Source of the DNA: a virus
Lineage: Duplodnaviria > Caudoviricetes
Strand: one strand, 5' to 3'
Virus record (IMG/VR): IMGVR_UViG_3300037722_000588
Coordinates: 1 to 32,452 of that record
DNA length: 32,452 nucleotides
Numbering within the stretch: the stretch's first letter is position 1; each line of letters starts with the position of its first letter. A model generated the notes under the pieces. It did no database searches, was not told where the DNA came from, and was given only the letters and a program-made list of their open reading frames with translations. This document shows positions 8,578-32,103 of this stretch, one piece after another. Both the position numbers and the translations under genes were made by a program.

Positions 8578-9297
8578 GTGGCTACAAAAAATGATATCGA
8601 CACTGGCTATCCTATCGAAATAGAGGCTGGAGGAACTCTCAAGCAAAGTTTTGATTCGTATGGAGTTATATGCGCTGGCACAACGACCACAGGAGCGTTA
8701 CAGTCTGTCCCTGCTGCCGCCTCAGGACTTGTTCTTATGAGTCAGGGGCCATCTGCTCTTCCTACATGGGGGAGCACTTCTGGTATGGCAGGAGCGCTTG
8801 TGCTCCTTGATTCTCAAACAGCCAGTGCTTCTTCTGAACTAGAATTCATAACAGGAATAACTTCTACCTATAACGTTTATTACCTCATTTTTGACAAGAT
8901 TGTAGTGGGTACAGGTGGAGATTCTCTCTACCTTACGGTATCAACAGACGGCGGGAGTACGTACGTATCAACAGGGTATTTTTCTGGTATTAATACGATA
9001 GATCACGGCTCAACAACTACCGTCAATACGAATGTAAGCAATGGTGCTCAGTGGCAATTGTCACCCGCACTATCTACATCGGGTTTTTGTTCTGCTCTGT
9101 GGGTTACTAATGTAACTAGTGGTAGTACGGTGGGTATATTTGGCGATGCTACGTTATGGAATAATAGTGGCAACCTTAGAATAGGCTCCATTATGGGATA
9201 CAACAGTGGAGCGCTTACGGTTGATGCGCTAAAGATCGTGGCGAGTACGGGGAATATAGCCAGTGGAACGGTGTACCTTTATGGATTAACTCAATAG
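8578..9297 (+). CDS. Tail fibre / receptor-binding paralogue 1 (239 aa)
   Basis: GTG start with GGAGA RBS; YPIEIEAGGT, GTTTTG.LQ, LVLLDSQ, STDGGSTY and SGTVYLYG motifs shared with the next two genes. Confidence 0.7.
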   Translation: MATKNDIDTGYPIEIEAGGTLKQSFDSYGVICAGTTTTGALQSVPAAASGLVLMSQGPSALPTWGSTSGMAGALVLLDSQTASASSELEFITGITSTYNVYYLIFDKIVVGTGGDSLYLTVSTDGGSTYVSTGYFSGINTIDHGSTTTVNTNVSNGAQWQLSPALSTSGFCSALWVTNVTSGSTVGIFGDATLWNNSGNLRIGSIMGYNSGALTVDALKIVASTGNIASGTVYLYGLTQ

Positions 9298-9305
9298 GAG
9301 AATGA

Positions 9306-10025
9306 ATGAGTAAAAATTCAATCGATACTGATTATCCTGTAGAGGTGGCTGCGGGTGGAACGGGAAGTCAGAGTTTTGTGGCCAACACTCCACTTGTAGG
9401 TGGCACGACCACTACCAATCCCCTTCAATCTGTAGCAAGTGTTGCTGGATCTGGGCAAATATTACGCTCAACGGGAACCTCCAGTATCCCCACGTTCCAA
9501 AATGTTTCTGTTAGTCCTTCGCTTGTATGGCTACAGACACTTTCTGAAGATAACACCTCCAATCCCATCGACTTTACTATCTCATCAACCTACTCGGATT
9601 ACGTGCTTATTATTCATGAGCTTTATCCAACGGTAGGGGGAACTATTCCACAGATGAGATTTTCTACCGACGGTGGAAGCACCTATGTTAATACCACCTA
9701 TTACTCAGGTGTTAACCATCTAGCACTAGGAAGTGCTACGCTCAACAATGTTAATATTACCAGTGGAACCCAGTGGAACATTGCCCCTGCGCTATCTGCT
9801 ACTAATCCTCGATATTATGCCCGCATTAATTTCTTTAACCTCACTAATGGTGACAGGCCATTTTATACAGGGGAATGTATGTTTAGGCTGAATGGTGGAG
9901 CTGTTTATTTTGGATCTATTTTGGGATGGAATGGCAATGCCTCAACCATTGATCGCCTAAGGCTCTTAATCAGTAGTGGAAATTGGGTGGTACGGGCAGC
10001 CTTATACGGCTTAGCTAAATCATAG
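9306..10025 (+). CDS. Tail fibre / receptor-binding paralogue 2 (239 aa)
   Basis: YPVEVAAGGT, GTTTTNPLQ, STDGGSTY and ALYG motifs; AGGAG RBS. Confidence 0.7.
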   Translation: MSKNSIDTDYPVEVAAGGTGSQSFVANTPLVGGTTTTNPLQSVASVAGSGQILRSTGTSSIPTFQNVSVSPSLVWLQTLSEDNTSNPIDFTISSTYSDYVLIIHELYPTVGGTIPQMRFSTDGGSTYVNTTYYSGVNHLALGSATLNNVNITSGTQWNIAPALSATNPRYYARINFFNLTNGDRPFYTGECMFRLNGGAVYFGSILGWNGNASTIDRLRLLISSGNWVVRAALYGLAKS

Positions 10026-10032
10026 GAGTGTA

Positions 10033-10752
10033 ATGGCTACAAAAAATGAATTAGATTCAGATTATCCTATAGAAATTCTGGCGGGTGGAACGGGACGAGC
10101 AAGTTTTTCTGTTCCCTATAGTGTGATATGTGGAGGAACATCAACCACCAACCCACTTCAAGTTATTGCATCATTAGGCAGTAGTGGGCAAGTATTAGAA
10201 AATCAGGGTCCAAGTTTATTGCCCCAATGGGCTAATTTTACTCCCAGTGCAAATGCGGGACTCGTGCTAATTGAAAGCCAACAGGGAGCTGGGGGCGATA
10301 TAGAATTCACTACGGGCATTACTACCACTTACCAGAACTTTATGATTGTTTTTACGAATGTAATTACTTCGGGGACGAGCTTCCAATTCTCTTTAAATGG
10401 TGGCTCTAGCTATGTAAATACTGGCTACTTCGTTGATAACCATTGGCGTGCGTTTAATGCTACAACGTACAATACAAATAGCGCTTCCAATACCACGGCA
10501 TTAGGAATGGGAAGTATAGATTCAGGATTTCCTGTTAATGGTGTATTTACTCTCTATCGTGGATTTGCTGGTGCTTCACCATTTGACCCTGCAATGACAG
10601 GCATGTTCACAGGGCTGCAAAGTGGTGGTACTGATTTAACACTGACGCAATTTATGGGATATCATAATGGAAATATCGACCCTATAAATGCCATTAAGGT
10701 AAGTAATATAACCTCAGGCACAGTAAGTGTGTATGGATGGATATTTAGCTAA
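10033..10752 (+). CDS. Tail fibre / receptor-binding paralogue 3 (239 aa)
   Basis: YPIEILAGGT, GTSTTNPLQ, SLNGGSSY and SGTVSVYG motifs; AGGAG RBS. Confidence 0.7.
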   Translation: MATKNELDSDYPIEILAGGTGRASFSVPYSVICGGTSTTNPLQVIASLGSSGQVLENQGPSLLPQWANFTPSANAGLVLIESQQGAGGDIEFTTGITTTYQNFMIVFTNVITSGTSFQFSLNGGSSYVNTGYFVDNHWRAFNATTYNTNSASNTTALGMGSIDSGFPVNGVFTLYRGFAGASPFDPAMTGMFTGLQSGGTDLTLTQFMGYHNGNIDPINAIKVSNITSGTVSVYGWIFS

Positions 10753-11052: not shown

Positions 11053-11265
11053 TCACATACCGTTCAGTCGCTTATTAATAGCTTCTTCTATTTCTTTTAT
11101 GGAGTATGGTTCTTGCACCTCAAGATTCTCCCAGTTGGGATGATGCTCATCTCTACTGACTTGAAGAAACATTGTATGAGACTTACGTATTTTGCAGATG
11201 GTTCCATAAGGTGCTTTATCCAAGGTAGGGGGTTCGCCATGCCGAACTAGTATAAGGCGTGCCAC
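11053..11265 (-). CDS. Hypothetical protein
   Basis: 70 aa; GTG start overlaps the upstream ERF stop codon (coupled). Confidence 0.6.
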   Translation of the reverse strand: MARLILVRHGEPPTLDKAPYGTICKIRKSHTMFLQVSRDEHHPNWENLEVQEPYSIKEIEEAINKRLNGM

Positions 11266-11951
11266 TATCTCTTCCTTCCATACTCCTCTTCTGTGCGCTT
11301 AATCTTGAGGATCTTAGACCGTGCTTTATAATACTCACTCCTTGGCAGATCCGCTAAGGTATCAATGCCATACGCTTCGAGTATATCCTTGGCTAATTTA
11401 GGAAGTCCATCAAGTTCTATAATCAGGTCATTGTACTGATCGGACGTAATCACATCGTTACGATCTAGAGCATCTTTTGCTGGATTGTCTGGCTTGCGCA
11501 TTTCCTTCATGAGATGAACATCGGCAAGCTCTTCGCCATCATCGTCAAATGAATAAGGATCATTTTCTAGCGGCGCTATACCAAGAACCAGCAACGTATG
11601 CCGACGACGGTGTATTTCGTAGATGTTACCAGTTTGTCGCTCGGTAGATCCATGAATAATGCGGCTAAAGGATGAGATGAACTGCCCTGACTCGTGGCAC
11701 AACATCGTCTTAAGGAGTGCAGCACCCGACCCTTCATCAAGCAACTCCACATAGTGAAAGAGTGCTAGACCATTAGCGGAAAGTGCTTCTTTGGTAGCTG
11801 CGAGAATATCTCTAAGTAGAGCAAACTTGCCCCGTGAGGTTCGTCCAGAGGGCACTAACTCCTTATAGGAGCCTTGTGCCTTTGCTAACGCCCCCATAAT
11901 CTTATCTATGTCTGCTGATCGGTAAACGCTATACATCGTGTCCATACTCAT
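11265..11951 (-). CDS. erf: ERF-family single-strand annealing protein, divergent copy
   Basis: ALAKAQG..KFA.L.DIL.A.K.ALS.NGL..LKTML.HESGQFISS...DDDG; the canonical TY.RRY motif is altered to EIHRRRH. Confidence 0.8.
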   Translation of the reverse strand: MSMDTMYSVYRSADIDKIMGALAKAQGSYKELVPSGRTSRGKFALLRDILAATKEALSANGLALFHYVELLDEGSGAALLKTMLCHESGQFISSFSRIIHGSTERQTGNIYEIHRRRHTLLVLGIAPLENDPYSFDDDGEELADVHLMKEMRKPDNPAKDALDRNDVITSDQYNDLIIELDGLPKLAKDILEAYGIDTLADLPRSEYYKARSKILKIKRTEEEYGRKR

Positions 11952-12431: not shown

Positions 12432-12623
12432 ATGACAGAGTATGTAACTATTGGAGAAGCTGCTCGCATGTTGGGCGTGAGTCCATCAACCGTTAGAAGA
12501 TTGGGTGAGGAGGGCTTATTAACGGTGTTTAGAAGGCCGACCAAAGAAAATAGTCCGTGGTCTTGGCGCTACTTTAGTCGAACTGAATTAGAAGAATTTG
12601 TATTACCTAAAGGAAGAGCATGA
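12432..12623 (+). CDS. MerR-like / excisionase-type HTH protein
   Basis: YVTIGEAARMLGVSPSTVRRL..EG.L...R...RYF..EL. Confidence 0.85.
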   Translation: MTEYVTIGEAARMLGVSPSTVRRLGEEGLLTVFRRPTKENSPWSWRYFSRTELEEFVLPKGRA

Positions 12624-13228
12624 GCGAATACAGCAAGAGTGAGTCTACCCATATGTCAGAGGACATACGGGAGTTAGGGGCAGCCCTTTTAAGGGCAAAG
12701 AATCAATTTAAGCACATAGAAAAGAGTGGGGAGAACTCTCATCAGCGTTATGAATATGCTCGCATAGGGGATATTTATAACGCTATTGAGGGTGCGCTGA
12801 TGGAAAATAATATTTTGGTTGTTCACGCAGGTGGCGTTACTGAGAAAGAGTATTTAATAACTCGATTGATTCACGTGCCAACGGGTCAGTTTATGCAAGA
12901 TGTTCGGTTGCTGGAAAGTGAGAAACCTGGCAATCAGGCTAAGGGGGCCACTAACACGTATATGCGTAAATATGCCCTCTTATCACTCTGCGCTCTATCA
13001 ACAGAAGATGATGATGGGGCGGCTGAGAGTGAGCATATTAACGAGAAGCCGCTTGTATCTACTGAGCAAGTACAGGAGCTTATAGCCCTTATTAAGGAAT
13101 GTGGTGATCCCAAGAAGGTCTACAGTGATATTAGGGGCTTTAATAAGATAAACGATCTTTATGAACTCAAGAGAGAATCATTTAATAGTGTTAAGTCATA
13201 CATTACCAAAGCACGGGACAAGAAATGA
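12620..13228 (+). CDS. erf: ERF-family single-strand annealing protein
   Basis: AALLRAK..K.G.N..YEYA..DI..L.T.LIH..TGQF..Q..GATNTYMRKYALLSL.AL..EDDDG. Confidence 0.88.
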   Translation: MSEYSKSESTHMSEDIRELGAALLRAKNQFKHIEKSGENSHQRYEYARIGDIYNAIEGALMENNILVVHAGGVTEKEYLITRLIHVPTGQFMQDVRLLESEKPGNQAKGATNTYMRKYALLSLCALSTEDDDGAAESEHINEKPLVSTEQVQELIALIKECGDPKKVYSDIRGFNKINDLYELKRESFNSVKSYITKARDKK

Positions 13229-24106: not shown

Positions 24107-25468
24107 ATGAACGTAGAAACACAGGTAACCCTTGATCGTTTCCAGTTACGCTGGTATCAAGAGGAAGTCTTTGACGCTATTGAGACCGATGGTGTTAAAC
24201 GTGTGTTGTATGTGGCCGCAAGGCGCGCAGGCAAGGATGTCCTTGGATGGAACCTAGCCATACGTCAATGCATACGTAAGACATGCCTCGTGTTCTATGT
24301 ACTTCCTACCTACTCACAGGGCCGCAAGGCAGTGTTTGATGCGATTACTATAGACTCTATGAAGTTCCTCGACTTCCTTCCCTCAAAACTCGTGGCCTCT
24401 ATTAACCAAAGTGAAATGAAAATACGCTTCAAGAACGATAGCATCTTGCAGGTTATAGGCGGAGACTCCTATGATACCTCTCTTGTTGGTACTAACCCCT
24501 ACGCCGTCATACTCTCCGAGTACGCACTCATGCCGCCTGATATCTTCTCATTCATACGCCCTATCTTGGCAGCGAACGGGGGCTGGTGTCTGTTTGTTGG
24601 AACACCACGGGGCAAGAATCATATGTGGAGCCTTCATAAACTTGCTCAAGAACTACCCGAATGGAAGGTTTTTGTTCATCGAGCATCTGAAATACAGCAC
24701 ATTCCTGATGAAGTTCTCGCTCAGGAGCGGGCACAAATGAGTGAGGAACTCTATCTTCAAGAGTACGAGTGTTCCTATGAGCGTGGCATAGAGGGCAGTA
24801 TCTACGGCAGATACTTAGATAATCTTCGGCTAAAGACTCAGATTACCTCAGTCAACTGGGAACCATCAATGCTCGTATACACCGCATTCGACATAGGTGT
24901 GAACGATGCTACAACGATCATTTTTTATCAGCTTGTTGATTCAGGAAATGCCTCAATAAGGATTATAGATTGTTACTCGAACACGGGGCTCGGCATAGAT
25001 CACTATGTTAAATACATAAAAGACAAGCCCTATAACTACGCTACTCACTATGCCCCGCATGATATCAAGGTACGTGAATGGGGCGGTGGTGCTGTTACCC
25101 GTTACGAGAAGGCACGACAACTTGGTTTAACCTTCTCCCTTATAGAGCAAGTACCCCTTTGGGATGGTATAGAGAATGTTATGACCCACTTTCCCAAGTT
25201 CTGGATAGATGCTGAGAAGTGTCGTTCTCTTGTTGATGCGCTTGAAAACTATCAAAAGGAGTGGGATGAGGTGCGCCGTATCCATAAGACGAAGCCAATC
25301 CATAATTGGGCAAGTAACTACGCAGATAGTCTCCGTTATCTCTGTCTGTCTATTCATAAATCACGCAAGGGGCTAAGCGCAGAAGACTATGAGCGCAAGA
25401 AAAGGGAAGCCATGTATGGGCGCCAAGGAAACCTCCCCCGATTCTTTAACAGGGATCCTCGTTTCTGA
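24107..25468 (+). CDS. terL: Terminase large subunit
   Basis: Walker A-like ARRAGKD, Walker B ILSEYA, GTPRGKN coupling motif, QEYECS, nuclease DIGVNDAT and HNWASNYADSLRY. Confidence 0.93.
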   Translation: MNVETQVTLDRFQLRWYQEEVFDAIETDGVKRVLYVAARRAGKDVLGWNLAIRQCIRKTCLVFYVLPTYSQGRKAVFDAITIDSMKFLDFLPSKLVASINQSEMKIRFKNDSILQVIGGDSYDTSLVGTNPYAVILSEYALMPPDIFSFIRPILAANGGWCLFVGTPRGKNHMWSLHKLAQELPEWKVFVHRASEIQHIPDEVLAQERAQMSEELYLQEYECSYERGIEGSIYGRYLDNLRLKTQITSVNWEPSMLVYTAFDIGVNDATTIIFYQLVDSGNASIRIIDCYSNTGLGIDHYVKYIKDKPYNYATHYAPHDIKVREWGGGAVTRYEKARQLGLTFSLIEQVPLWDGIENVMTHFPKFWIDAEKCRSLVDALENYQKEWDEVRRIHKTKPIHNWASNYADSLRYLCLSIHKSRKGLSAEDYERKKREAMYGRQGNLPRFFNRDPRF

Positions 25469-25540: not shown

Positions 25541-27571
25541 ATGTTAATGAGAGCGCCCGAATCCCTGAATGAAAACTTTCGAGCCGTTAAAAAGAAGATG
25601 GATGCGGATTATATTGCGCATCAGTCCCTCTGGGTTACCCACCAAGCTGAAGCATCTATAGATACCCGTCTTGAGGCGGGTGATTCATCGCTCATGGAAC
25701 AGTACACCAACTTCCCTTCTGCTTCTGGCAGGAGCTGGTACTTTAACCGTGTGCGTCCTTTATGCAGTATGGTGTCAGGACACCAACGGAAGAACCGTAA
25801 ATCAACGGTGGTCTTACCGCTAGAGAACGGCGATCAAAAGACTTCAGATCAATGGACAAAGATAATCCTTGGTATCTATAAGAGAGAGAACGTATATGAG
25901 ACTATATCGGATGCGTTCCACCAAGGAGCTTGTGTTACAGGGATGAACTTACTCCACGTCTATATTGATTACCGCAATGATCCTGTGTCTGGTGATGTTA
26001 AGGTGGACAACTTAGCCTATAACACCTTTTACATAGACCCGTATTTCAGGAAGGTTGATCTTTCAGATTGTGAGTTTGTCTGGCGTAGGAGTTATATAAG
26101 CCACTCACAAGCCGCTTCCCTTCTTCCTAAAAAATATTATGAAGAGATTATGAATCTGCCAGGCAATCCCACAGGAACAGGACGTGATGGTAAGTTCCAG
26201 TTTATGCCTGAAGCATCTGGGCAGATGCAGAGTAATAAGGTTGCCTATGATGAATACTACTATCGTGATTACCGACGACAAAAGTTGCTTATTGATGAAG
26301 AAACAGGGGAAATGCTTGATGTTACCGACAAAGAGCATATCGATATAGATCGGTTCCTTTTGGAAAACCCCACCGCCTACCTAGAAGAACAGGACATACC
26401 GACCGTACGGTTGGCTATAGCCGTACAGGATCAAGTATTTTACGATGGCCCCTCTGGTCTTGATATCTATCCCTTTGTGCCTGTTGTTGGGTATTACAAT
26501 CCGATGATGCCGTACTTTTATCAAAGAATACAGGGCATCTGTCGCTCACTTAGAGACCCTCAGATACTTTTTAACCGACGCCTCTTACTCTCTGCCGATG
26601 CTGCTGAGTCAGTTGTTAATAGTGGCTGGAAGTTTAAAGAGAACGCTATTATCGACGTGAAGCATCTGTTCCAGACTGGCCAAGGCCGCATTATCCCATT
26701 AAAGGAAGAAGCCGCCATGACTGACGTAGAACAGATATCACCACCCAATATCCCGCAATACTTCTTCCAGCTACAGGATTCATTCTCCAAGGAGATGAAC
26801 CTTGTCTCTGGTATTAACGAGGAAATGATGGGTGCGAACATGGATGATAAGGCAGCGATACTCTCAGCGCTCAGACAGAGCAGTGGATTGGTTACCTTAC
26901 AGCCTATATTCGACAAGCTTGATAACGCTCAGAACATTCTTGGTGAGCTTATTATGAGGGTAGTACGTAGTAGCTATGTCCCAAGTAAAATAAGAGCCCT
27001 TCTTGAGGGTGAAGAGCCAGCGCCACTGTTCTATGATAAGGCGTTCGGTAAGTATCACTGCATGGTTGAGCTTGGGCTTAATACCGAGTCACAAAAACAG
27101 ATGCAAGCGGCCCAGTTGATGCAGCTCACCGAGCTTGGTTATAAGTTCTCACCAAAAGTAATGCTTAATGCCTTCTCTATCCAGAACAAGGAAGAGATCA
27201 TCGAGGATATGATGCAACAGGAGAAACAGCAGGCTGAAATGGCGCAGCAACAGGCACAGGTTCAAATGGAGCAAATCAGGGCACAGACACAGCTCGCCCA
27301 AGCACATTCCGTTGCTAATCAAGGGTTAGGGGCAGAACGCTTCAGTAGAATACAGGAGAATCAGGCATTAGCGGTGGAGCGCAGAGCTGAGGCAGAAAAA
27401 GATGAACAACTTGCTTTACTCAACTTCGCTAAGGCGATAAAAGAAATAGAGAGTATTGATATTGCTCAACTTGAAAAAATAATATCGTTGCAGCGCATGC
27501 TTAAAGCAGCCGAAGAGCAGCGGGAACAATCTCCTCAACCCTTTCAGAGTAGTTTTGAAGGGGGTAGATAG
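25541..27571 (+). CDS. Portal protein (P22-like)
   Basis: 676 aa directly after TerL; FNRVRP...V.G.QR.NR, YPFVP, G..R.L.DPQ..N, Gln-rich C-terminal barrel. Confidence 0.88.
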   Translation: MLMRAPESLNENFRAVKKKMDADYIAHQSLWVTHQAEASIDTRLEAGDSSLMEQYTNFPSASGRSWYFNRVRPLCSMVSGHQRKNRKSTVVLPLENGDQKTSDQWTKIILGIYKRENVYETISDAFHQGACVTGMNLLHVYIDYRNDPVSGDVKVDNLAYNTFYIDPYFRKVDLSDCEFVWRRSYISHSQAASLLPKKYYEEIMNLPGNPTGTGRDGKFQFMPEASGQMQSNKVAYDEYYYRDYRRQKLLIDEETGEMLDVTDKEHIDIDRFLLENPTAYLEEQDIPTVRLAIAVQDQVFYDGPSGLDIYPFVPVVGYYNPMMPYFYQRIQGICRSLRDPQILFNRRLLLSADAAESVVNSGWKFKENAIIDVKHLFQTGQGRIIPLKEEAAMTDVEQISPPNIPQYFFQLQDSFSKEMNLVSGINEEMMGANMDDKAAILSALRQSSGLVTLQPIFDKLDNAQNILGELIMRVVRSSYVPSKIRALLEGEEPAPLFYDKAFGKYHCMVELGLNTESQKQMQAAQLMQLTELGYKFSPKVMLNAFSIQNKEEIIEDMMQQEKQQAEMAQQQAQVQMEQIRAQTQLAQAHSVANQGLGAERFSRIQENQALAVERRAEAEKDEQLALLNFAKAIKEIESIDIAQLEKIISLQRMLKAAEEQREQSPQPFQSSFEGGR

Positions 27572-27621: not shown

Positions 27622-27864
27622 ATGGCAAAACGTTATCACGAATCATCATATGAAAAGAAAATGATGAAGAAGGCTGGTGGCATGATCAATGACGATCGTA
27701 GCGCACAAGCCAACCTTCCCCGCAATATAATACAGAAGAACTTTGGTATGCCTGGGTATGGAATGCCACGTGAATACATTGATGACCTGTACAAGGGTGT
27801 AGAAAAGCAAATGCAAGAAGACACCATGGGCTTCAAGAAAGTCTTTAAGCCAAGCAAATACTAA
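27622..27864 (+). CDS. Hypothetical protein
   Basis: 80 aa, AAGGAG RBS. Confidence 0.65.
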   Translation: MAKRYHESSYEKKMMKKAGGMINDDRSAQANLPRNIIQKNFGMPGYGMPREYIDDLYKGVEKQMQEDTMGFKKVFKPSKY

Positions 27865-27869
27865 GGATA

Positions 27870-28022
27870 ATGATGCCAGGACAAATACGAACCAATAAGA
27901 GGGCAGCTAAGATAGCCTATCGCTTGTTGAGAATCCCCAAAGAACTACAACAACGTCCCGACAAGAAGCCGTCAAAGCGTCGCCTTGAAGAATGGTTTAA
28001 AAACTCTAGCGCATCACAGTAA
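27870..28022 (+). CDS. 50-aa basic protein (not in ORF track)
   Basis: MMPGQIRTNKRAAKIAYRLLRIPKELQQRPDKKPSKRRLEEWFKNSSASQ; AAGGA RBS; fills the gap between genes. Confidence 0.55.
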   Translation: MMPGQIRTNKRAAKIAYRLLRIPKELQQRPDKKPSKRRLEEWFKNSSASQ

Positions 28023-28024
28023 GC

Positions 28025-28070
28025 AGTAAGGAGACAGTCTCTGGAAAGTCTCAGAGACTGTCTCCTTACT
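28025..28070. repeat. Perfect 19-bp inverted repeat
   Basis: AGTAAGGAGACAGTCTCTG-gaaagtct-CAGAGACTGTCTCCTTACT. Confidence 0.9.
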
Positions 28071-28086
28071 TAAAGAAGAGGAAATA

Positions 28087-28377
28087 ATGGAAAAGAAAAT
28101 AGCGAAGCACCTACGGAGCGACATTAAGACGTTCCATGAAGAGGCGCAGGACGACAGAAAACTATTAAAAAGTCTTGGTAACCATGAGCGCAAGGAGAAG
28201 AAATCAGCAAAAAAGCCCACTCCTGGTAAAAAGAAGTTCGAAAAAGTTCTTCATGAATACAAGGCAGGCGATCTTCGTTCAGGCTCCAAGAAGGGTCCAA
28301 AGGTTACCAACAAGAAACAGGCCCTCGCCATAGCTTTTTCTGAAAAGCGTCGTGCTAAAAAGAAGAAAAAGAAATAA
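28087..28377 (+). CDS. Lys-rich DUF6496-like phage protein
   Basis: KFEKVLHEYKAGDLRSGSKKGPKVTNKKQALAIAFSE motif. Confidence 0.75.
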   Translation: MEKKIAKHLRSDIKTFHEEAQDDRKLLKSLGNHERKEKKSAKKPTPGKKKFEKVLHEYKAGDLRSGSKKGPKVTNKKQALAIAFSEKRRAKKKKKK

Positions 28378-28493: not shown

Positions 28494-29021
28494 ATGAACG
28501 AAAAGAAGAAGGCTGGGCAACTGATTGTAGAGCATGAGCAGAAGCAAATCATGCTCGAAGACGATGTACGGGAGTATCGTAAGGCTATGGAGCCCCATGT
28601 ACTTCAAGATCTCTATAAAAAGGTGGCAGAAGCTCAAAAGCATGACATATATGCCAATAAAGATTTCTATGTAGTAATGCTATTCGGCCCCCAACGAGTA
28701 TTGAGACACCCGCAGCGTATTATTCTGGTGCGCCAGTCATGCCCGACCCCTGTCTACAAGCAAACCGTATGGAAATACAACCATCTTTCAGGAACTCTTC
28801 AATTTCTCTGGCAGCTACCAGACATGTTTCAATACTATGAAATAGTAAATAACCAGCATCGGTATCTTATGGATAAGAATCGTAAGGAGATAGCTCAGTT
28901 TGTGATATTAGATCACACAGGGGAGCTTCTAAAATGGGTTAAGAAAGAGAATGGCAATAAAATTGATGCAGTTATTAAAATAACACCACCACAGGAGGAG
29001 CAGGAATGCTTAATGAGTTAG
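28494..29021 (+). CDS. Hypothetical head-module protein
   Basis: 175-aa ORF between portal and scaffold. Confidence 0.7.
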   Translation: MNEKKKAGQLIVEHEQKQIMLEDDVREYRKAMEPHVLQDLYKKVAEAQKHDIYANKDFYVVMLFGPQRVLRHPQRIILVRQSCPTPVYKQTVWKYNHLSGTLQFLWQLPDMFQYYEIVNNQHRYLMDKNRKEIAQFVILDHTGELLKWVKKENGNKIDAVIKITPPQEEQECLMS

Positions 29022-29743
29022 ATCCAAACACCCAACAGTACACACAACCAACTGAACAACCAGAAGCACCAGCACCAGTAGAAGCAGCGCCCGCAGAAAA
29101 GCAACCCGTTGAATCAGATAGAGAGAATAATTTACGAGTGCTCCGAGAACGTGCCGAAGCAGCAGAGCGAAGAGCACAGGAACTGGAACGTTCTATACAT
29201 ACCTCCTACCAACAGCAGGCCGCCCCTAAACAGGTAGAAGCTGAGGATGAGGATGATGATATCAATGATGATATGTATCTTGATGGTAGAACCTATAAAA
29301 AGCAGCGTCAGTTACTAAAAAAAGAAGCTAAAGAGACACGGCAACAACTAGAACAGATGCGCATGGAAAGTGCTGAAATCAAACTACGCCAAGAGTTCCC
29401 AGACTTCACCAAGGTAGTAAATCAGGAAAACATGGCTAAGCTGGCACAGAACAAACCGTTGCTGTATAAAACAATCATTGAAAATAAAGATTGGTACACC
29501 AAGGGATACACGGCTTACGAAATGTTAATGGGAAGTGGTATCGTTCCAACAGTGCCACGTGAGTCGGTTCAACGAATACAAGAAAACCATGAGCGCCCTA
29601 AATCAATGTCGTCTGCAGCCCCTCAAACCTCCAATAGCCCTCTGGCTAAGGTTGGCGACTATGACCGACGCATACTTTCAAAAGAGCGGCAAGATGAAAT
29701 ACGCCGCATGGTAGAGATCAATAAGAGCTACCGCCCTTCTTAA
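29006..29743 (+). CDS. Putative capsid scaffolding protein
   Basis: Pro/Glu-rich N-terminus, coiled coils, acidic linker; immediately upstream of the capsid gene; GGAG RBS. Confidence 0.65.
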   Translation: MLNELDPNTQQYTQPTEQPEAPAPVEAAPAEKQPVESDRENNLRVLRERAEAAERRAQELERSIHTSYQQQAAPKQVEAEDEDDDINDDMYLDGRTYKKQRQLLKKEAKETRQQLEQMRMESAEIKLRQEFPDFTKVVNQENMAKLAQNKPLLYKTIIENKDWYTKGYTAYEMLMGSGIVPTVPRESVQRIQENHERPKSMSSAAPQTSNSPLAKVGDYDRRILSKERQDEIRRMVEINKSYRPS

Positions 29744-29759: not shown

Positions 29760-29795
29760 GTCCCCTGAGTCTTTCCTTTTTTTCTATCAGGGGAC
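29760..29795 (+). terminator. Hairpin after the scaffold gene (possible terminator)
   Basis: GTCCCCTGA/TCAGGGGAC 9-bp stem with an 18-nt pyrimidine-rich loop; T-rich tract a few nt downstream. Confidence 0.45.
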
Positions 29796-29801
29796 ACCCA
29801 C

Positions 29802-29831
29802 TTGAGTTTTTCTTCCATTTTTTTCTATACT
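29802..29831 (+). promoter_or_regulatory. Sigma70-like promoter for the capsid leader
   Basis: TTGAGT (29802-07), 18 nt, TATACT (29826-31); predicted start site about 29837-38. Confidence 0.6.
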
Positions 29832-29837
29832 ACAGAC

Positions 29838-29986
29838 GAACGTAACGTGTAGTCGTTCAACACATCGACGTAAAGAGCCTCGTCAGCTTCCCTTCGGCGT
29901 ACCGATGCTCGCCACATCACGAACGTAATGAGTAGTCGTTCGACTCAATAGGTGTTCAAGTTGCCGACACTATGTTGATGACTTGA
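29838..29986 (+). ncRNA. Structured RNA leader: tandem H-type pseudoknot array
   Basis: Four 23-27 nt units with co-varying P1 and P2 stems and a conserved CG-UA / U-CG core, plus a fifth larger pseudoknot. Confidence 0.7.
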
Positions 29987-30023
29987 CGTGTATTGTTTTA
30001 ATCAAATTTTTCGGGAGTATGTG

Positions 30024-30971
30024 ATGATAACTTCACCTACAACCCTTCCTGCCCCGGTTCAGCAGTGGTTTGATGATGTACTTTTGTCGGTAAGAACTCC
30101 AAATCTTATCCACAAACTTGGTGCTATTAAAAAACGCTTGCCGTCCAAGAGCGGAAGGACATTGCGCATGGGAAGATACGATAGACTTCCTACCGCACCA
30201 ACTCCATTAAGTGGTAATGGGGATCCAATTCCAGCGACCCCTCTTAACAGAGTCGATATCGATGCGACAATTTCTTATTATGGATTGTTCGTTGCTATCA
30301 ACCAGCAAGTAACTGTTTCTAACCAAGATCCTGTCTTAAATGAAACAGCAGAACTTCTTGGTCTGTCTCTTCGTATGACCGAAGACCAACTGACCAGAGA
30401 TATGCTTGCTTCAACAGCGACCTTGTACAACTGTACTGGTGGTAGTAACGGTGATGTGCCGTCTGACCTCTCTTTGCCTGATATTGATGAAGTATCTGCT
30501 GCATTGCTAACTAACGATGCATGGATGATTCTCGAAGGCCAAGAGGGTGAAGATAAATTCGGCACTGGTCCGTTGAGAGACTCTTACCTAGCGCTCGGGC
30601 ATTCCAGATTGTCAAAAGATCTGAATAATATTAACGGATTTATTTCCAAATGGAATTATCCTGACTCAAATTCTGTGTTAAGAAGTGAGTGGGGGTCTGT
30701 TAATAACGTGCGCTTTATGCTCTCATCTGTAGGGTCTATCACCCCGAATGCATCCCTGCTTGGTAACGATGTGTATAACATCTTTGTCCAAGGTATGGAG
30801 GCACTCGCATGTGTTGAGCAAGATAATTACGCAGCACAGTTCTTGTATCGTCCACCTGTATTCTCTGATCCATTGTTCCAGAATGTAACTTTAGGCTATG
30901 TTTTCGCAGAAGTTCCTAAAATACTTCAAGATCTGTGGATCACTAAAATGGCGTGTACGCTACGATCTTAG
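30024..30971 (+). CDS. Major capsid protein (N4-gp56-like)
   Basis: GGGAG RBS favours ATG 30024; LP...G.T....RY..L, P...G.P, YG.., D.L.RD.L, EWG.V..VRF, DPL.Q..T.G pattern; follows the scaffold gene. Confidence 0.85.
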   Translation: MITSPTTLPAPVQQWFDDVLLSVRTPNLIHKLGAIKKRLPSKSGRTLRMGRYDRLPTAPTPLSGNGDPIPATPLNRVDIDATISYYGLFVAINQQVTVSNQDPVLNETAELLGLSLRMTEDQLTRDMLASTATLYNCTGGSNGDVPSDLSLPDIDEVSAALLTNDAWMILEGQEGEDKFGTGPLRDSYLALGHSRLSKDLNNINGFISKWNYPDSNSVLRSEWGSVNNVRFMLSSVGSITPNASLLGNDVYNIFVQGMEALACVEQDNYAAQFLYRPPVFSDPLFQNVTLGYVFAEVPKILQDLWITKMACTLRS

Positions 30972-30980
30972 GAGGTTATG

Positions 30981-32075
30981 ATGTCTGTACTTTTTTCTGG
31001 AACTAACCAAGGACGGTTCACCTCCACGGGCGCACCTGAAATCATTAAGATTCGCTCTGATTTAGATTGGATGTACGTTCTTAATGAAACAGTGGCCCAT
31101 GCGGCTGGTGCTGATACTGGCGCTGAATTTAGGTGGCAACGTGGCATGGCTGATGGTCGTGGAATAATCTACACCAAGACATCCGCCACAGATGCCCTCC
31201 AAATAGCACAGATAGCAGCACAATCAGGATTCTATTTGATTGATTCATCAGTCAATATACCTGGGGCTTCTACTGCGCTTACTGGGGTGAATGCCAACTC
31301 TGGTGCGTTCAGTTCACCACAAGCACTAACTGGTAATACCAACAACCTTCCTGTAACCGCCGTTGCTGGTGCTAATAACCCTGCGGGGGTTATTCGTATC
31401 TTTAACGTAACAGGTGCGCTACAGCTTGGCGGCTTGGATTTTACTGTTGCTAACGTTGTATCTAATACCAGTATGGATCTGATTTACATGGATTCTATTG
31501 TGTCTGCTGCTGCTGGTGGTGGAACCTACCGTGTGATTCCATTTGATCCTATTTTCTACCCACGTCGTCGTTACATCACCAAGGTGATTGTAGCTACTTC
31601 TGGTACTGCGGCTACAGGTAACCCAGCCCTCTCAGCGCAACAAGCGATTGTTACTCTGTCAGTTACTCATGGTTATACCGTTGGTCAGGTAATTCGTTTT
31701 GTCGTTCCTACTGTTACTGCAACAGCGTTCGGCATGACTGAACTTAACGGCGTTAAGGCAACCATTATCGCTGTAGGCGATCAGGATGCTGACGGCGCTA
31801 CCAACACCATCCGTGTAGACCTTGATGTAAGCTCATTTACTGCCTTTGCATTCCCACTTACAGCCGATGGCGGGTTTACTCCTGCTCAAATCGTCCCTGT
31901 TGGTGAAGACACTGCTCAAGCAATACTGAGCGGCGTTAACCTACTTGGTGATGCTACTATCAATACAGCGTACATCGGCATTAAACTACAAGCGGGGACA
32001 ACATCTCCTGCTGGTGTTTCTGGCGATGTCATTTACTGGATTGCTGGTAAATCATTTAACGTAGATAACAACTAG
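30981..32075 (+). CDS. Virion structural protein (capsid decoration / head-associated)
   Basis: Beta-rich, directly after the capsid gene; HGYTVGQVIRF..GMTELNG motif; GGAGG RBS favours ATG 30981. Confidence 0.6.
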   Translation: MSVLFSGTNQGRFTSTGAPEIIKIRSDLDWMYVLNETVAHAAGADTGAEFRWQRGMADGRGIIYTKTSATDALQIAQIAAQSGFYLIDSSVNIPGASTALTGVNANSGAFSSPQALTGNTNNLPVTAVAGANNPAGVIRIFNVTGALQLGGLDFTVANVVSNTSMDLIYMDSIVSAAAGGGTYRVIPFDPIFYPRRRYITKVIVATSGTAATGNPALSAQQAIVTLSVTHGYTVGQVIRFVVPTVTATAFGMTELNGVKATIIAVGDQDADGATNTIRVDLDVSSFTAFAFPLTADGGFTPAQIVPVGEDTAQAILSGVNLLGDATINTAYIGIKLQAGTTSPAGVSGDVIYWIAGKSFNVDNN

Positions 32076-32080
32076 TCATA

Positions 32081-32103
32081 GGGGGGCTTTGGCCCCTCTT
32101 TTT
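32081..32103 (+). terminator. Rho-independent terminator
   Basis: GGGGGGC-TTTG-GCCCCTC followed by TTTTT. Confidence 0.75.

Follow-up and report, generated by a model that had tools for sequence, protein, structure and literature searches.

The first 110 bases past the predicted promoter of the major capsid gene in an uncultivated tailed-phage genome consist of four copies of a 25-base predicted pseudoknot unit. The window (the whole stretch of DNA that was analysed, 32,452 nucleotides) holds most of the genome, with a terminase gene at 24107 and a P22-like portal gene at 25541. Comparison with related leaders supports reading the array as a conserved structured RNA family, apparently undescribed. 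We give a probability of about one half to the proposal that it forms a stacked barrier to the host RNase E/G, which would yield a long-lived capsid message and more coat than scaffold.

An earlier note, made from the sequence of the window, had proposed the four units. All 16 of the 16 stem strands were found at the coordinates it gave (Table 1), and the CGTA motifs are spaced 28, 29 and 26 nt apart, as it had counted. The linkers between successive units read ATC, CCCTTC and AC. A descriptor of the unit, run over the window, returned the four array units and one isolated match at 24275. Among 5000 dinucleotide shuffles of the 130-nt region, 4947 held no unit, 52 held one, a single shuffle held two and none held more, while 200 shuffles of the whole window gave a mean of 0.36 units and a maximum of 3. 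The four-unit array is thus far beyond chance. Nested folding of positions 29830–30030 was no better than that of shuffled sequences (z = +1.08), as expected if the signal sits in crossing pairs.

Table 1. Features of the capsid leader and its operon, in window coordinates.
Feature	Position	Strand	Details
Scaffold-like gene	29006..29743	+	245 aa; acidic disordered N-terminus, long helices and C-terminal helix (predicted)
9-bp inverted repeat with U-rich loop	29760..29795		between scaffold stop and promoter -35; -16.7 kcal/mol
Predicted sigma-70-type promoter	29802..29831	+	-35 TTGAGT 29802-29807; 18-nt spacer; -10 TATACT 29826-29831
Unit 1	29838..29863	+	stem 1 29838-42/29854-58; stem 2 29847-50/29860-63; first paired base is the predicted +1
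Unit 2	29867..29889	+	stem 1 29867-70/29881-84; stem 2 29875-78/29886-89, one G-U pair
Unit 3	29896..29918	+	stem 1 29896-99/29910-13; stem 2 29904-07/29915-18
Unit 4	29921..29947	+	stem 1 29921-25/29937-41; stem 2 29929-33/29943-47
Spacer from array to capsid gene	29948..30023	+	76 nt; window-specific hairpin, U-rich stretch, Shine-Dalgarno (SD) sequence GGGAG 30013-30017
Major capsid protein, N4-gp56 type	30024..30971	+	315 aa; phrog_1357, PF25209
Second gene of predicted 2.26-kb message	30978..32075	+	365 aa; no family match; position conserved in relatives
Terminator-like hairpin with U run	32080..32103	+	would close the transcript of the capsid and second genes

Each unit comprises a 4–5-bp stem 1, closed on top by C-G and G-C pairs, and a 3–6-bp stem 2 of free sequence. 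The first loop (2–6 nt) begins with UA, sometimes AA or CA, the second (2–3 nt) ends in U, and the third measures 1–2 nt. The conserved core consists of CG-nA, U-CG and a single purine. Units are 23–27 nt long and 31–73% alike; the linkers between them, which span 0–2 nt in 68 of 157 cases, are rich in U and C (708 of 1169 nt) and contain no shared A-rich cut site. Covariation supports the crossing two-stem pairing implied by the label H-type, which the units had been given, but their loop lengths follow what we take to be the reverse of the classical H-type pattern. With the lengths inverted in this way, the three-dimensional fold of the unit is not predictable here. The isolated stems are weak, at -3.6 to -5.7 kcal/mol for stem 1 and -2.0 to -3.2 kcal/mol for stem 2. 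Bulged and hairpin-inserted variants occur among relatives. Core variants were seen as well: the leaders of L050, L057 and L073 have a stem 1 of GACC/GGTC followed by CAA, and those of L007, L045 and L060 have CG followed by TT, with both stems kept throughout. Such natural variants would be useful for mapping which core bases matter.

A protein search with the capsid sequence gave 470 relatives, of which the best 80 were kept. After gut and cultured-phage loci (L450–L535) were dropped and duplicates merged, 91 distinct leaders were left, 70 of which, the window included, had been fetched by capsid protein alone. By the descriptor, 53 of these 70 carry two to five full units, six carry one and 11 carry none; three of the 11 have a scaffold gene that abuts the capsid gene, and hence no leader, and several others show variant units by eye. 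The units are concentrated in this one place. Across 77 loci, the capsid leaders (19 kb in total) hold 168 of them; the remainder of the same strand, 583 kb long, has 16, and the opposite strand 15.

Pairing is kept while sequence changes. With stem 2 left out of the definition, so that units were recognised from stem 1 and the core, 173 of 227 formed a Watson-Crick stem 2, compared with a mean of 35 and a maximum of 53 of 227 in 500 swaps of their 3′ tails. In a set of 64 distinct units whose loop is 10 nt long, Watson-Crick pairing in register holds for 212 of 256 cells, compared with 51–63 at four off registers. Stem 1 covaries as well (GACG, GGCG, AGCG, AACG, GATG and others). An alignment of 17 units, hand-picked to fit and therefore illustrative only, shows 35 double changes. 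Wobble-pair strand counts were G-U 9 against A-C 12 in stem 2 and 4 against 1 in stem 1; a count that included the gut loci (A-C 25 against G-U 10) was confounded by these loci and by A/C-rich flanks. The internal covariation noticed in the window is thus present in homologous leaders. The invariance of CGTA holds for the four window units but not for the family, where the bases after CG are TA in 175, AA in 18 and CA in 17 of 210 units. A binding site in double-stranded DNA was also considered and was rejected, as it cannot explain the covariation of stem 2, the bulges or the inserted hairpins.

The array had been placed at the predicted start site of a TTGAGT/TATACT promoter. The match is present and its position is conserved, but promoter-like matches in the region are by themselves at chance level (6 found, 8.4 expected), so that the promoter call in the window rests on conservation in relatives. 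There, TTG precedes the -10 by 16–18 nt in 53 of 60 leaders, against 3 at a control spacing. In the 58 leaders with a -10 found, among 70 with at least two units, the first paired base of the array lies 6–7 nt after the -10 in 40 and is a purine in 54, and we predict that it occupies the usual +1 position. From the last unit to the capsid AUG the distance in relatives has a median of 52 nt (range 31–109), and the intervening sequence is 69% A+U. Hairpins resembling the strong inverted repeat upstream of the promoter are visible in many relatives.

The gene before the leader is called scaffold-like from its position and predicted architecture; it has no match in PHROG, Pfam or PDB, and a fold search was empty at E ≤ 0.001. 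No unit occurs at its start. Downstream, five related contigs of 2.1–2.4 kb (L029, L031, L037, L050 and L057) run from inside the array region to the end of the second gene or close to it. Their size matches the 2.26-kb message predicted from the terminator at 32080, and we infer that they derive from RNA.

Several other features of these genomes were noted in passing. Between the portal and scaffold genes (27622–28377) the window has three small basic ORFs of 80, 50 and 96 aa, the last with DUF6496; similar ORFs occur in relatives and are candidate RNA-binding partners. Three tandem 239-aa paralogues, 38–40% identical, follow a tail-fibre-like gene at 8578–10752 and possibly form an exchangeable receptor-binding set. 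Two divergently oriented Erf-like annealing genes lie at 11265–11951 (minus strand) and 12620–13228 (plus strand). In 13 of 90 loci (L039, L040, L042, L044–L048, L202, L203, L206, L208 and L209) the capsid gene is split by insertions of 200–1100 nt near codons 78–107 and 144, some with ORFs; these carry short motifs that we take to be those of group I introns. In L027 and L032 the capsid gene is apparently interrupted near codon 12.

The earlier note had suggested a pattern search of phage genomes near capsid genes, and this showed that the unit recurs beside the head genes of other capsid families. Three sequence-pattern scans, in which most raw matches were chance, were followed by a pairing filter and led to two further families, phrog_9953 and phrog_14242, whose relatives were then fetched by protein. 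Three PHROG capsid families in all carry the unit. A placement missed in that note is the scaffold start, where the unit also occurs in related and unrelated phages. In phrog_9953, a strict unit is found in the scaffold-start zone of 25 of 62 distinct loci; the 16.7 kb of this zone contain 31 units, while 16 were found in the 289 kb outside it and 25 in the 305 kb of the opposite strand. The unit holds the in-frame scaffold AUG, just after the SD, in 10 of the 62 loci, two of which belong to the seed's own lineage. In several loci, paired units flank the scaffold start. Among 22 loci of phrog_14242, units are intercistronic only in 12, in the first scaffold codons only in 4, in both places in 2 (where the scaffold-side matches are non-canonical) and in neither in 4. 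Intercistronic units thus occur in 14 loci, and in 7 of these the first unit starts 6–20 nt past the scaffold stop and is preceded by a brief A/U-rich stretch.

Gut phages with a capsid about 24% identical to that of the window carry a unit in the first codons at 13 of 16 distinct scaffold 5′ ends; its stems covary and an inserted hairpin is present. Nine N4-type relatives have a scaffold gene that abuts the capsid gene, and four of them show a clear unit at the scaffold start. In L135, L550 and L551 the unit lies upstream of the scaffold SD. Where the gene arrangement is that of the window, none of 58 scaffold starts has a unit. From these placements across families, the unit tracks the 5′ edge of capsid-coding RNA. 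The four groups of scaffold proteins share no significant profile similarity (HH probability ≤36%), and a shared RNA-binding domain was not detected among them; with scaffold families lacking detectable homology, no common phage ligand is evident.

No window-type unit was found at the scaffold starts of P22, SPP1, phiCD119, A118, Pony, vB_Pun_Y3, DES1, IME10, Sf6 or APSE-1. Circularly permuted pseudoknot-like elements, with U-CG on the first strand and CG-UA after the second, were seen at about 4510–4580 of L567 (the scaffold leader of Listeria phage A118, apparently with two such elements in tandem that end at the SD), at about 1575–1605 of L452 (Bacillus phage Pony) and upstream of the scaffold gene in L550, L551, L552 and L563. 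A descriptor of the permuted form matched two of 13 scaffold starts, and its background was 12 matches in 64.6 kb. With this background of about 1 per 5 kb, and with A118-family leaders being diverse, the permuted form stays a lead. The diverse A118-family metagenome leaders lack window-type units, and the 20 loci tested had no Rfam match; in L697–L755, paired hairpins with GGCGTAAC loops precede the scaffold genes, together with two to three copies of a GGCGTG...TACGG repeat. In the P22 group, a conserved hairpin immediately precedes the scaffold SD, where the portal gene ends or slightly beyond (L455, P22, at about 555–575; L678, IME10; L679, Sf6; L680, APSE-1). It reads CGGC/GCCG or CTGCG/CGCAG, then AG, and may form a second stem, one pair of which is lost in IME10. 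This hairpin is a candidate site for the autoregulation of the P22 scaffold.

These placements bear on what the array might do. HK022 put is an RNA antiterminator that acts on RNA polymerase from a fixed position just downstream of its promoter, and the array, as nascent RNA at +1, might likewise modify polymerase for read-through of late-operon terminators. Its fixed position at the predicted +1 in the window's clade and the terminator-like site after the second gene are in keeping with this. We give it a very slim chance, however: the short contigs do not extend past the second gene, one polymerase site needs no two to five interchangeable copies, and units elsewhere lie just past a scaffold stop, as in half of the intercistronic phrog_14242 loci, or inside codons.

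We favour a barrier to RNase E/G. According to the part of the text of PMC9943677 that was available, RNase E binds the 5′ monophosphate of a message and scans linearly, pseudoknots block this scanning whereas stem-loops are bypassed, and the more coaxial pairs there are (8, 11 and 15 bp), the stronger the protection. Stem 1 of unit 1 would pair the first transcribed base and hinder attack on the 5′ end. Pairing of the +1 base should hinder pyrophosphate removal. Each knot of 8–10 bp would be a weak obstacle to 5′-tethered scanning, which is why two to five might be chained, and the ribosome site of the capsid gene would stay free 31–109 nt downstream. In phages without a separate capsid promoter, a unit right after the scaffold stop, or one that covers the scaffold start with its first codons, would set the 5′ boundary of a stable RNA in which the capsid gene is kept and scaffold initiation is lost or dampened. 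The role of the conserved core would be to keep so small a knot intact, and the obstacle may grow larger when a protein binds. For most placements, the RNA so protected would retain the capsid ribosome site and lose or bury that of the scaffold, with L135, L550 and L551 as exceptions.

Since pseudoknots impede RNase E, a barrier would explain why the units are knots and not hairpins, why they are chained, and why the sequence of stem 2 is free and hairpin insertions are tolerated; the last two properties fit an obstacle that acts by shape only. Covariation and position predict pseudoknotted pairing between the 5′ end and the coding region. The proposal is further favoured by the presence of RNase E/G in candidate hosts assigned by MAG binning, and by the five short contigs, which span the array region to the end of the second gene. 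The unit also follows the capsid message and not the scaffold gene, given its absence from all 58 scaffold starts of the clade and its mostly intercistronic position in phrog_14242. A further argument comes from the T4 gene 32 message, the most stable T4 mRNA, which RNase E cuts at -71, just upstream of the leader pseudoknot (PMC3014915, from the portion of the article available).

Other observations count against a barrier. The isolated stems are weak, and with a third loop of 1–2 nt, stacking along the scanning path as in the tested pseudoknots cannot be assumed. A pure obstacle needs no conserved core bases. The AUG-containing units in phrog_9953 look like translational control, and in L135, L550 and L551 a unit precedes the scaffold SD. 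Gut phages carry the unit too, and their presumed Firmicutes hosts presumably rely on other nucleases. The host link, lastly, is by MAG binning, and the closest genome match to the phage is a 3-kb contig in a Saccharibacteria MAG.

Candidate hosts were assigned only through the binning of free phage contigs into MAGs. The search of annotated phages gave no cultured close relative among 27 records, with about 21–26% identity in the 20 matches listed. In the phylum of a Babeliales MAG, 3 of 261 genomes have a capsid homologue; in that of a Parachlamydiaceae MAG, 13 of 400 do, many of these matches being weak; four MAG contig stretches that we inspected hold phage-like genes only. All 31 genomes examined from the phylum of the Babeliales MAG have RNase E/G over the cut-off, as do 5 of 5 MAGs that hold related phage contigs, the host link being MAG binning in both cases. 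RNase Y was found in 30 of 31 candidate-host genomes. For RNase J, none of 61 and none of 60 candidate-host genomes gave a match over the cut-off; there was one partial match of 277 bits, and the control gave 8 of 14. This lack of RNase J over the cut-off in candidate hosts weakens a literal reading of the units as xrRNAs. A nuclease-blocking 5′ cap is the best fit among the four functions listed in the earlier note, with the amendment that the modelled target would be the endonuclease RNase E/G and not a 5′–3′ exonuclease.

Another of those functions, a capsid or scaffold autoregulatory operator, is a live rival, although we consider it rather unlikely. Free scaffold or free capsid protein would bind the knots as feedback; a unit at the scaffold start would repress scaffold translation, and in the capsid leader binding would nucleate repression along the A+U-rich spacer, in the manner of T4 gp32, or stabilise the coat message. 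The AUG inside the unit in 10 of 62 phrog_9953 loci and the paired units that flank the start in several agree with this, and a core that is conserved while the stems vary freely suggests a surface made to be recognised. The tandem arrangement would suit binding by an oligomer, and the marginal stability of the stems also fits. A knot followed by some 50 A+U-rich nt and an SD is the layout of T4 gene 32, as far as the source seen in part describes it. Set against an operator are the use of one core across non-homologous scaffolds and three PHROG capsid families, the distance of arrays from the capsid AUG, never below 31 nt, and the scaffold starts of P22, SPP1, phiCD119 and A118, which lack a unit. 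Simple autorepression of the scaffold is contradicted by the 58 of 58 unit-free starts in the clade, so it is not a constant function of the unit. A barrier and an operator can coexist, since a bound protein is also an obstacle.

If a host machine were the ligand, the conservation of the unit across unrelated phage proteins would be explained. Protein S1 binds pseudoknots, and the knots and pyrimidine-rich linkers could recruit the 30S subunit or S1 to the capsid message and enhance its translation, in line with the U/C-rich linkers. Where a unit covers the scaffold AUG or falls within codons, it ought instead to hinder initiation. Nor was a host gene copy of the unit found: in 101 genomes, with up to 75 candidates scored in each, the only significant model match was a phage contig, and eight weak matches all lacked stem 2. 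We regard such an enhancer as improbable.

The conserved junction bases and weak stems would also suit a tiny aptamer, in which a small molecule stabilises the knot and alters message stability; riboswitch obstacles to RNase E are alluded to in the accessible part of PMC9943677. This is very improbable, as the leader has no terminator, no Rfam riboswitch match, no metabolic gene context and no conserved alternative pairing with the SD. The proposal of a tandem riboswitch likewise fails for want of an expression platform: the leader contains no terminator-like site, and pairing between the array and the start region is not co-adapted. Nested folding does pair the SD with the array in 50 of 65 leaders, yet these pairings are not stronger than those of swapped arrays (p = 0.55) and are weaker than those with shuffled arrays. 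Given the swap and shuffle controls, an anti-SD switch was rejected as an effect of composition.

Tailed phages need hundreds of coat subunits and fewer scaffolds, often from one operon, and what fixes the ratio of the two is to our knowledge still mostly unsettled. The unit is of interest here as a compact element, amenable to testing, that is found at the scaffold/capsid junction in at least three capsid families. A decay-barrier role would make it a natural device, built for the purpose, that exploits the blocking of RNase E scanning by pseudoknots; the 25-nt unit would then be a modular stabiliser of mRNA whose strength might depend on the number of copies. A role as a protein-bound operator would place it among the rare pseudoknot operators, of which a 2010 review, in the part available, calls T4 gene 32 perhaps the only viral one, and would offer a way into scaffold autoregulation. 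More tentatively, one module across unrelated capsids, scaffolds and hosts could possibly be the bacterial counterpart of xrRNAs, directed against scanning endonucleases, which through its placement would cut a long-lived coat-only message from the head operon and so set the capsid stoichiometry; with scaffold or coat bound, it might become an assembly sensor, and the A118 and Pony leaders may hold a permuted form.

The unit family appears to be undescribed, as had been suspected, and likely works like known leader pseudoknots and decay barriers. Rfam 15 gave no match to the window at E ≤ 1 or to positions 29780–30040 at E ≤ 10, only a tRNA in 18 loci of relatives and none in 12 loci of the two other capsid families. 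We found no published description of the unit in the literature covered, which included the main text of Weinberg 2017 and the candidates of Fremin 2023 as described there. Of known predicted structured RNAs, GP20-a (RF02991) and GP20-b (RF03003) also lie directly upstream of phage capsid genes, those of GP20. DNAVirus_3698 and DNAVirus_865 of Fremin 2023 (PMC10690425) lie upstream of N4-type capsid genes; they measure 85 and 62 nt with 2 covarying bases each and, compared by their description in the available text, could overlap with our family.

Tandem small pseudoknots encoded by a phage recall ToxI and the pseudo-ToxI of phage PhiTE, which in the available part of PMC3475682 is an intergenic locus of near-identical 36-nt tandem repeats cut into monomers. 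An anti-defence decoy of this kind, for which the probably high transcription of the array would speak, had been proposed but fits poorly, and we give it next to no chance. The window family consists of divergent 23–27-nt units, 31–73% alike, that are fused to the mRNA start, with short linkers and no conserved cleavage site between the window units. They are tied to the starts of head genes, within coding sequence and even across a start codon, and have no Rfam antitoxin match. No toxin family was found among 37 ORFs (Pfam) or 19 ORFs (PADLOC), which speaks to membership of a toxin–antitoxin system only, as a decoy needs no toxin gene.

Scaffold autoregulation in P22, which Wyckoff and Casjens are said to have described in 1985, is a precedent for an operator, with reportedly post-transcriptional control at a scaffold gene that precedes the coat gene. 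The start of P22 gene 8 has no unit, however, and the window array sits on the capsid leader and not at a scaffold start. Flavivirus and dianthovirus xrRNAs resemble the array as compact pseudoknots, sometimes in tandem, that define a protected 5′ end, but the sources, in the sections available, describe them as larger elements that stop exonucleases and depend on a ring of some 15 nt that surrounds the 5′ end (bioRxiv 10.1101/262683, PMC8374639).

The obstacles of PMC9943677, as presented in the accessible text, are 5′-leader pseudoknots with 8–15 coaxial pairs that protect downstream sites and raise protein output, as stem-loops do not. Those are single engineered inserts in reporters, whereas the present array is natural, conserved, tandem and predicted, has another loop geometry and belongs to phage head operons. 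The leaders of gene 32 in T4, T2 and RB69 place a pseudoknot about 50–70 nt before the AUG, followed by an A+U-rich stretch (PMC3014915, in part), and the same kind of stretch separates knot and SD here. Gene 32 has one classical coaxial knot and encodes a cooperative ssDNA-binding protein; the window family has two to five smaller knots with inverted loop lengths, its array precedes a major capsid gene, and units of the same type also occur inside coding sequence.
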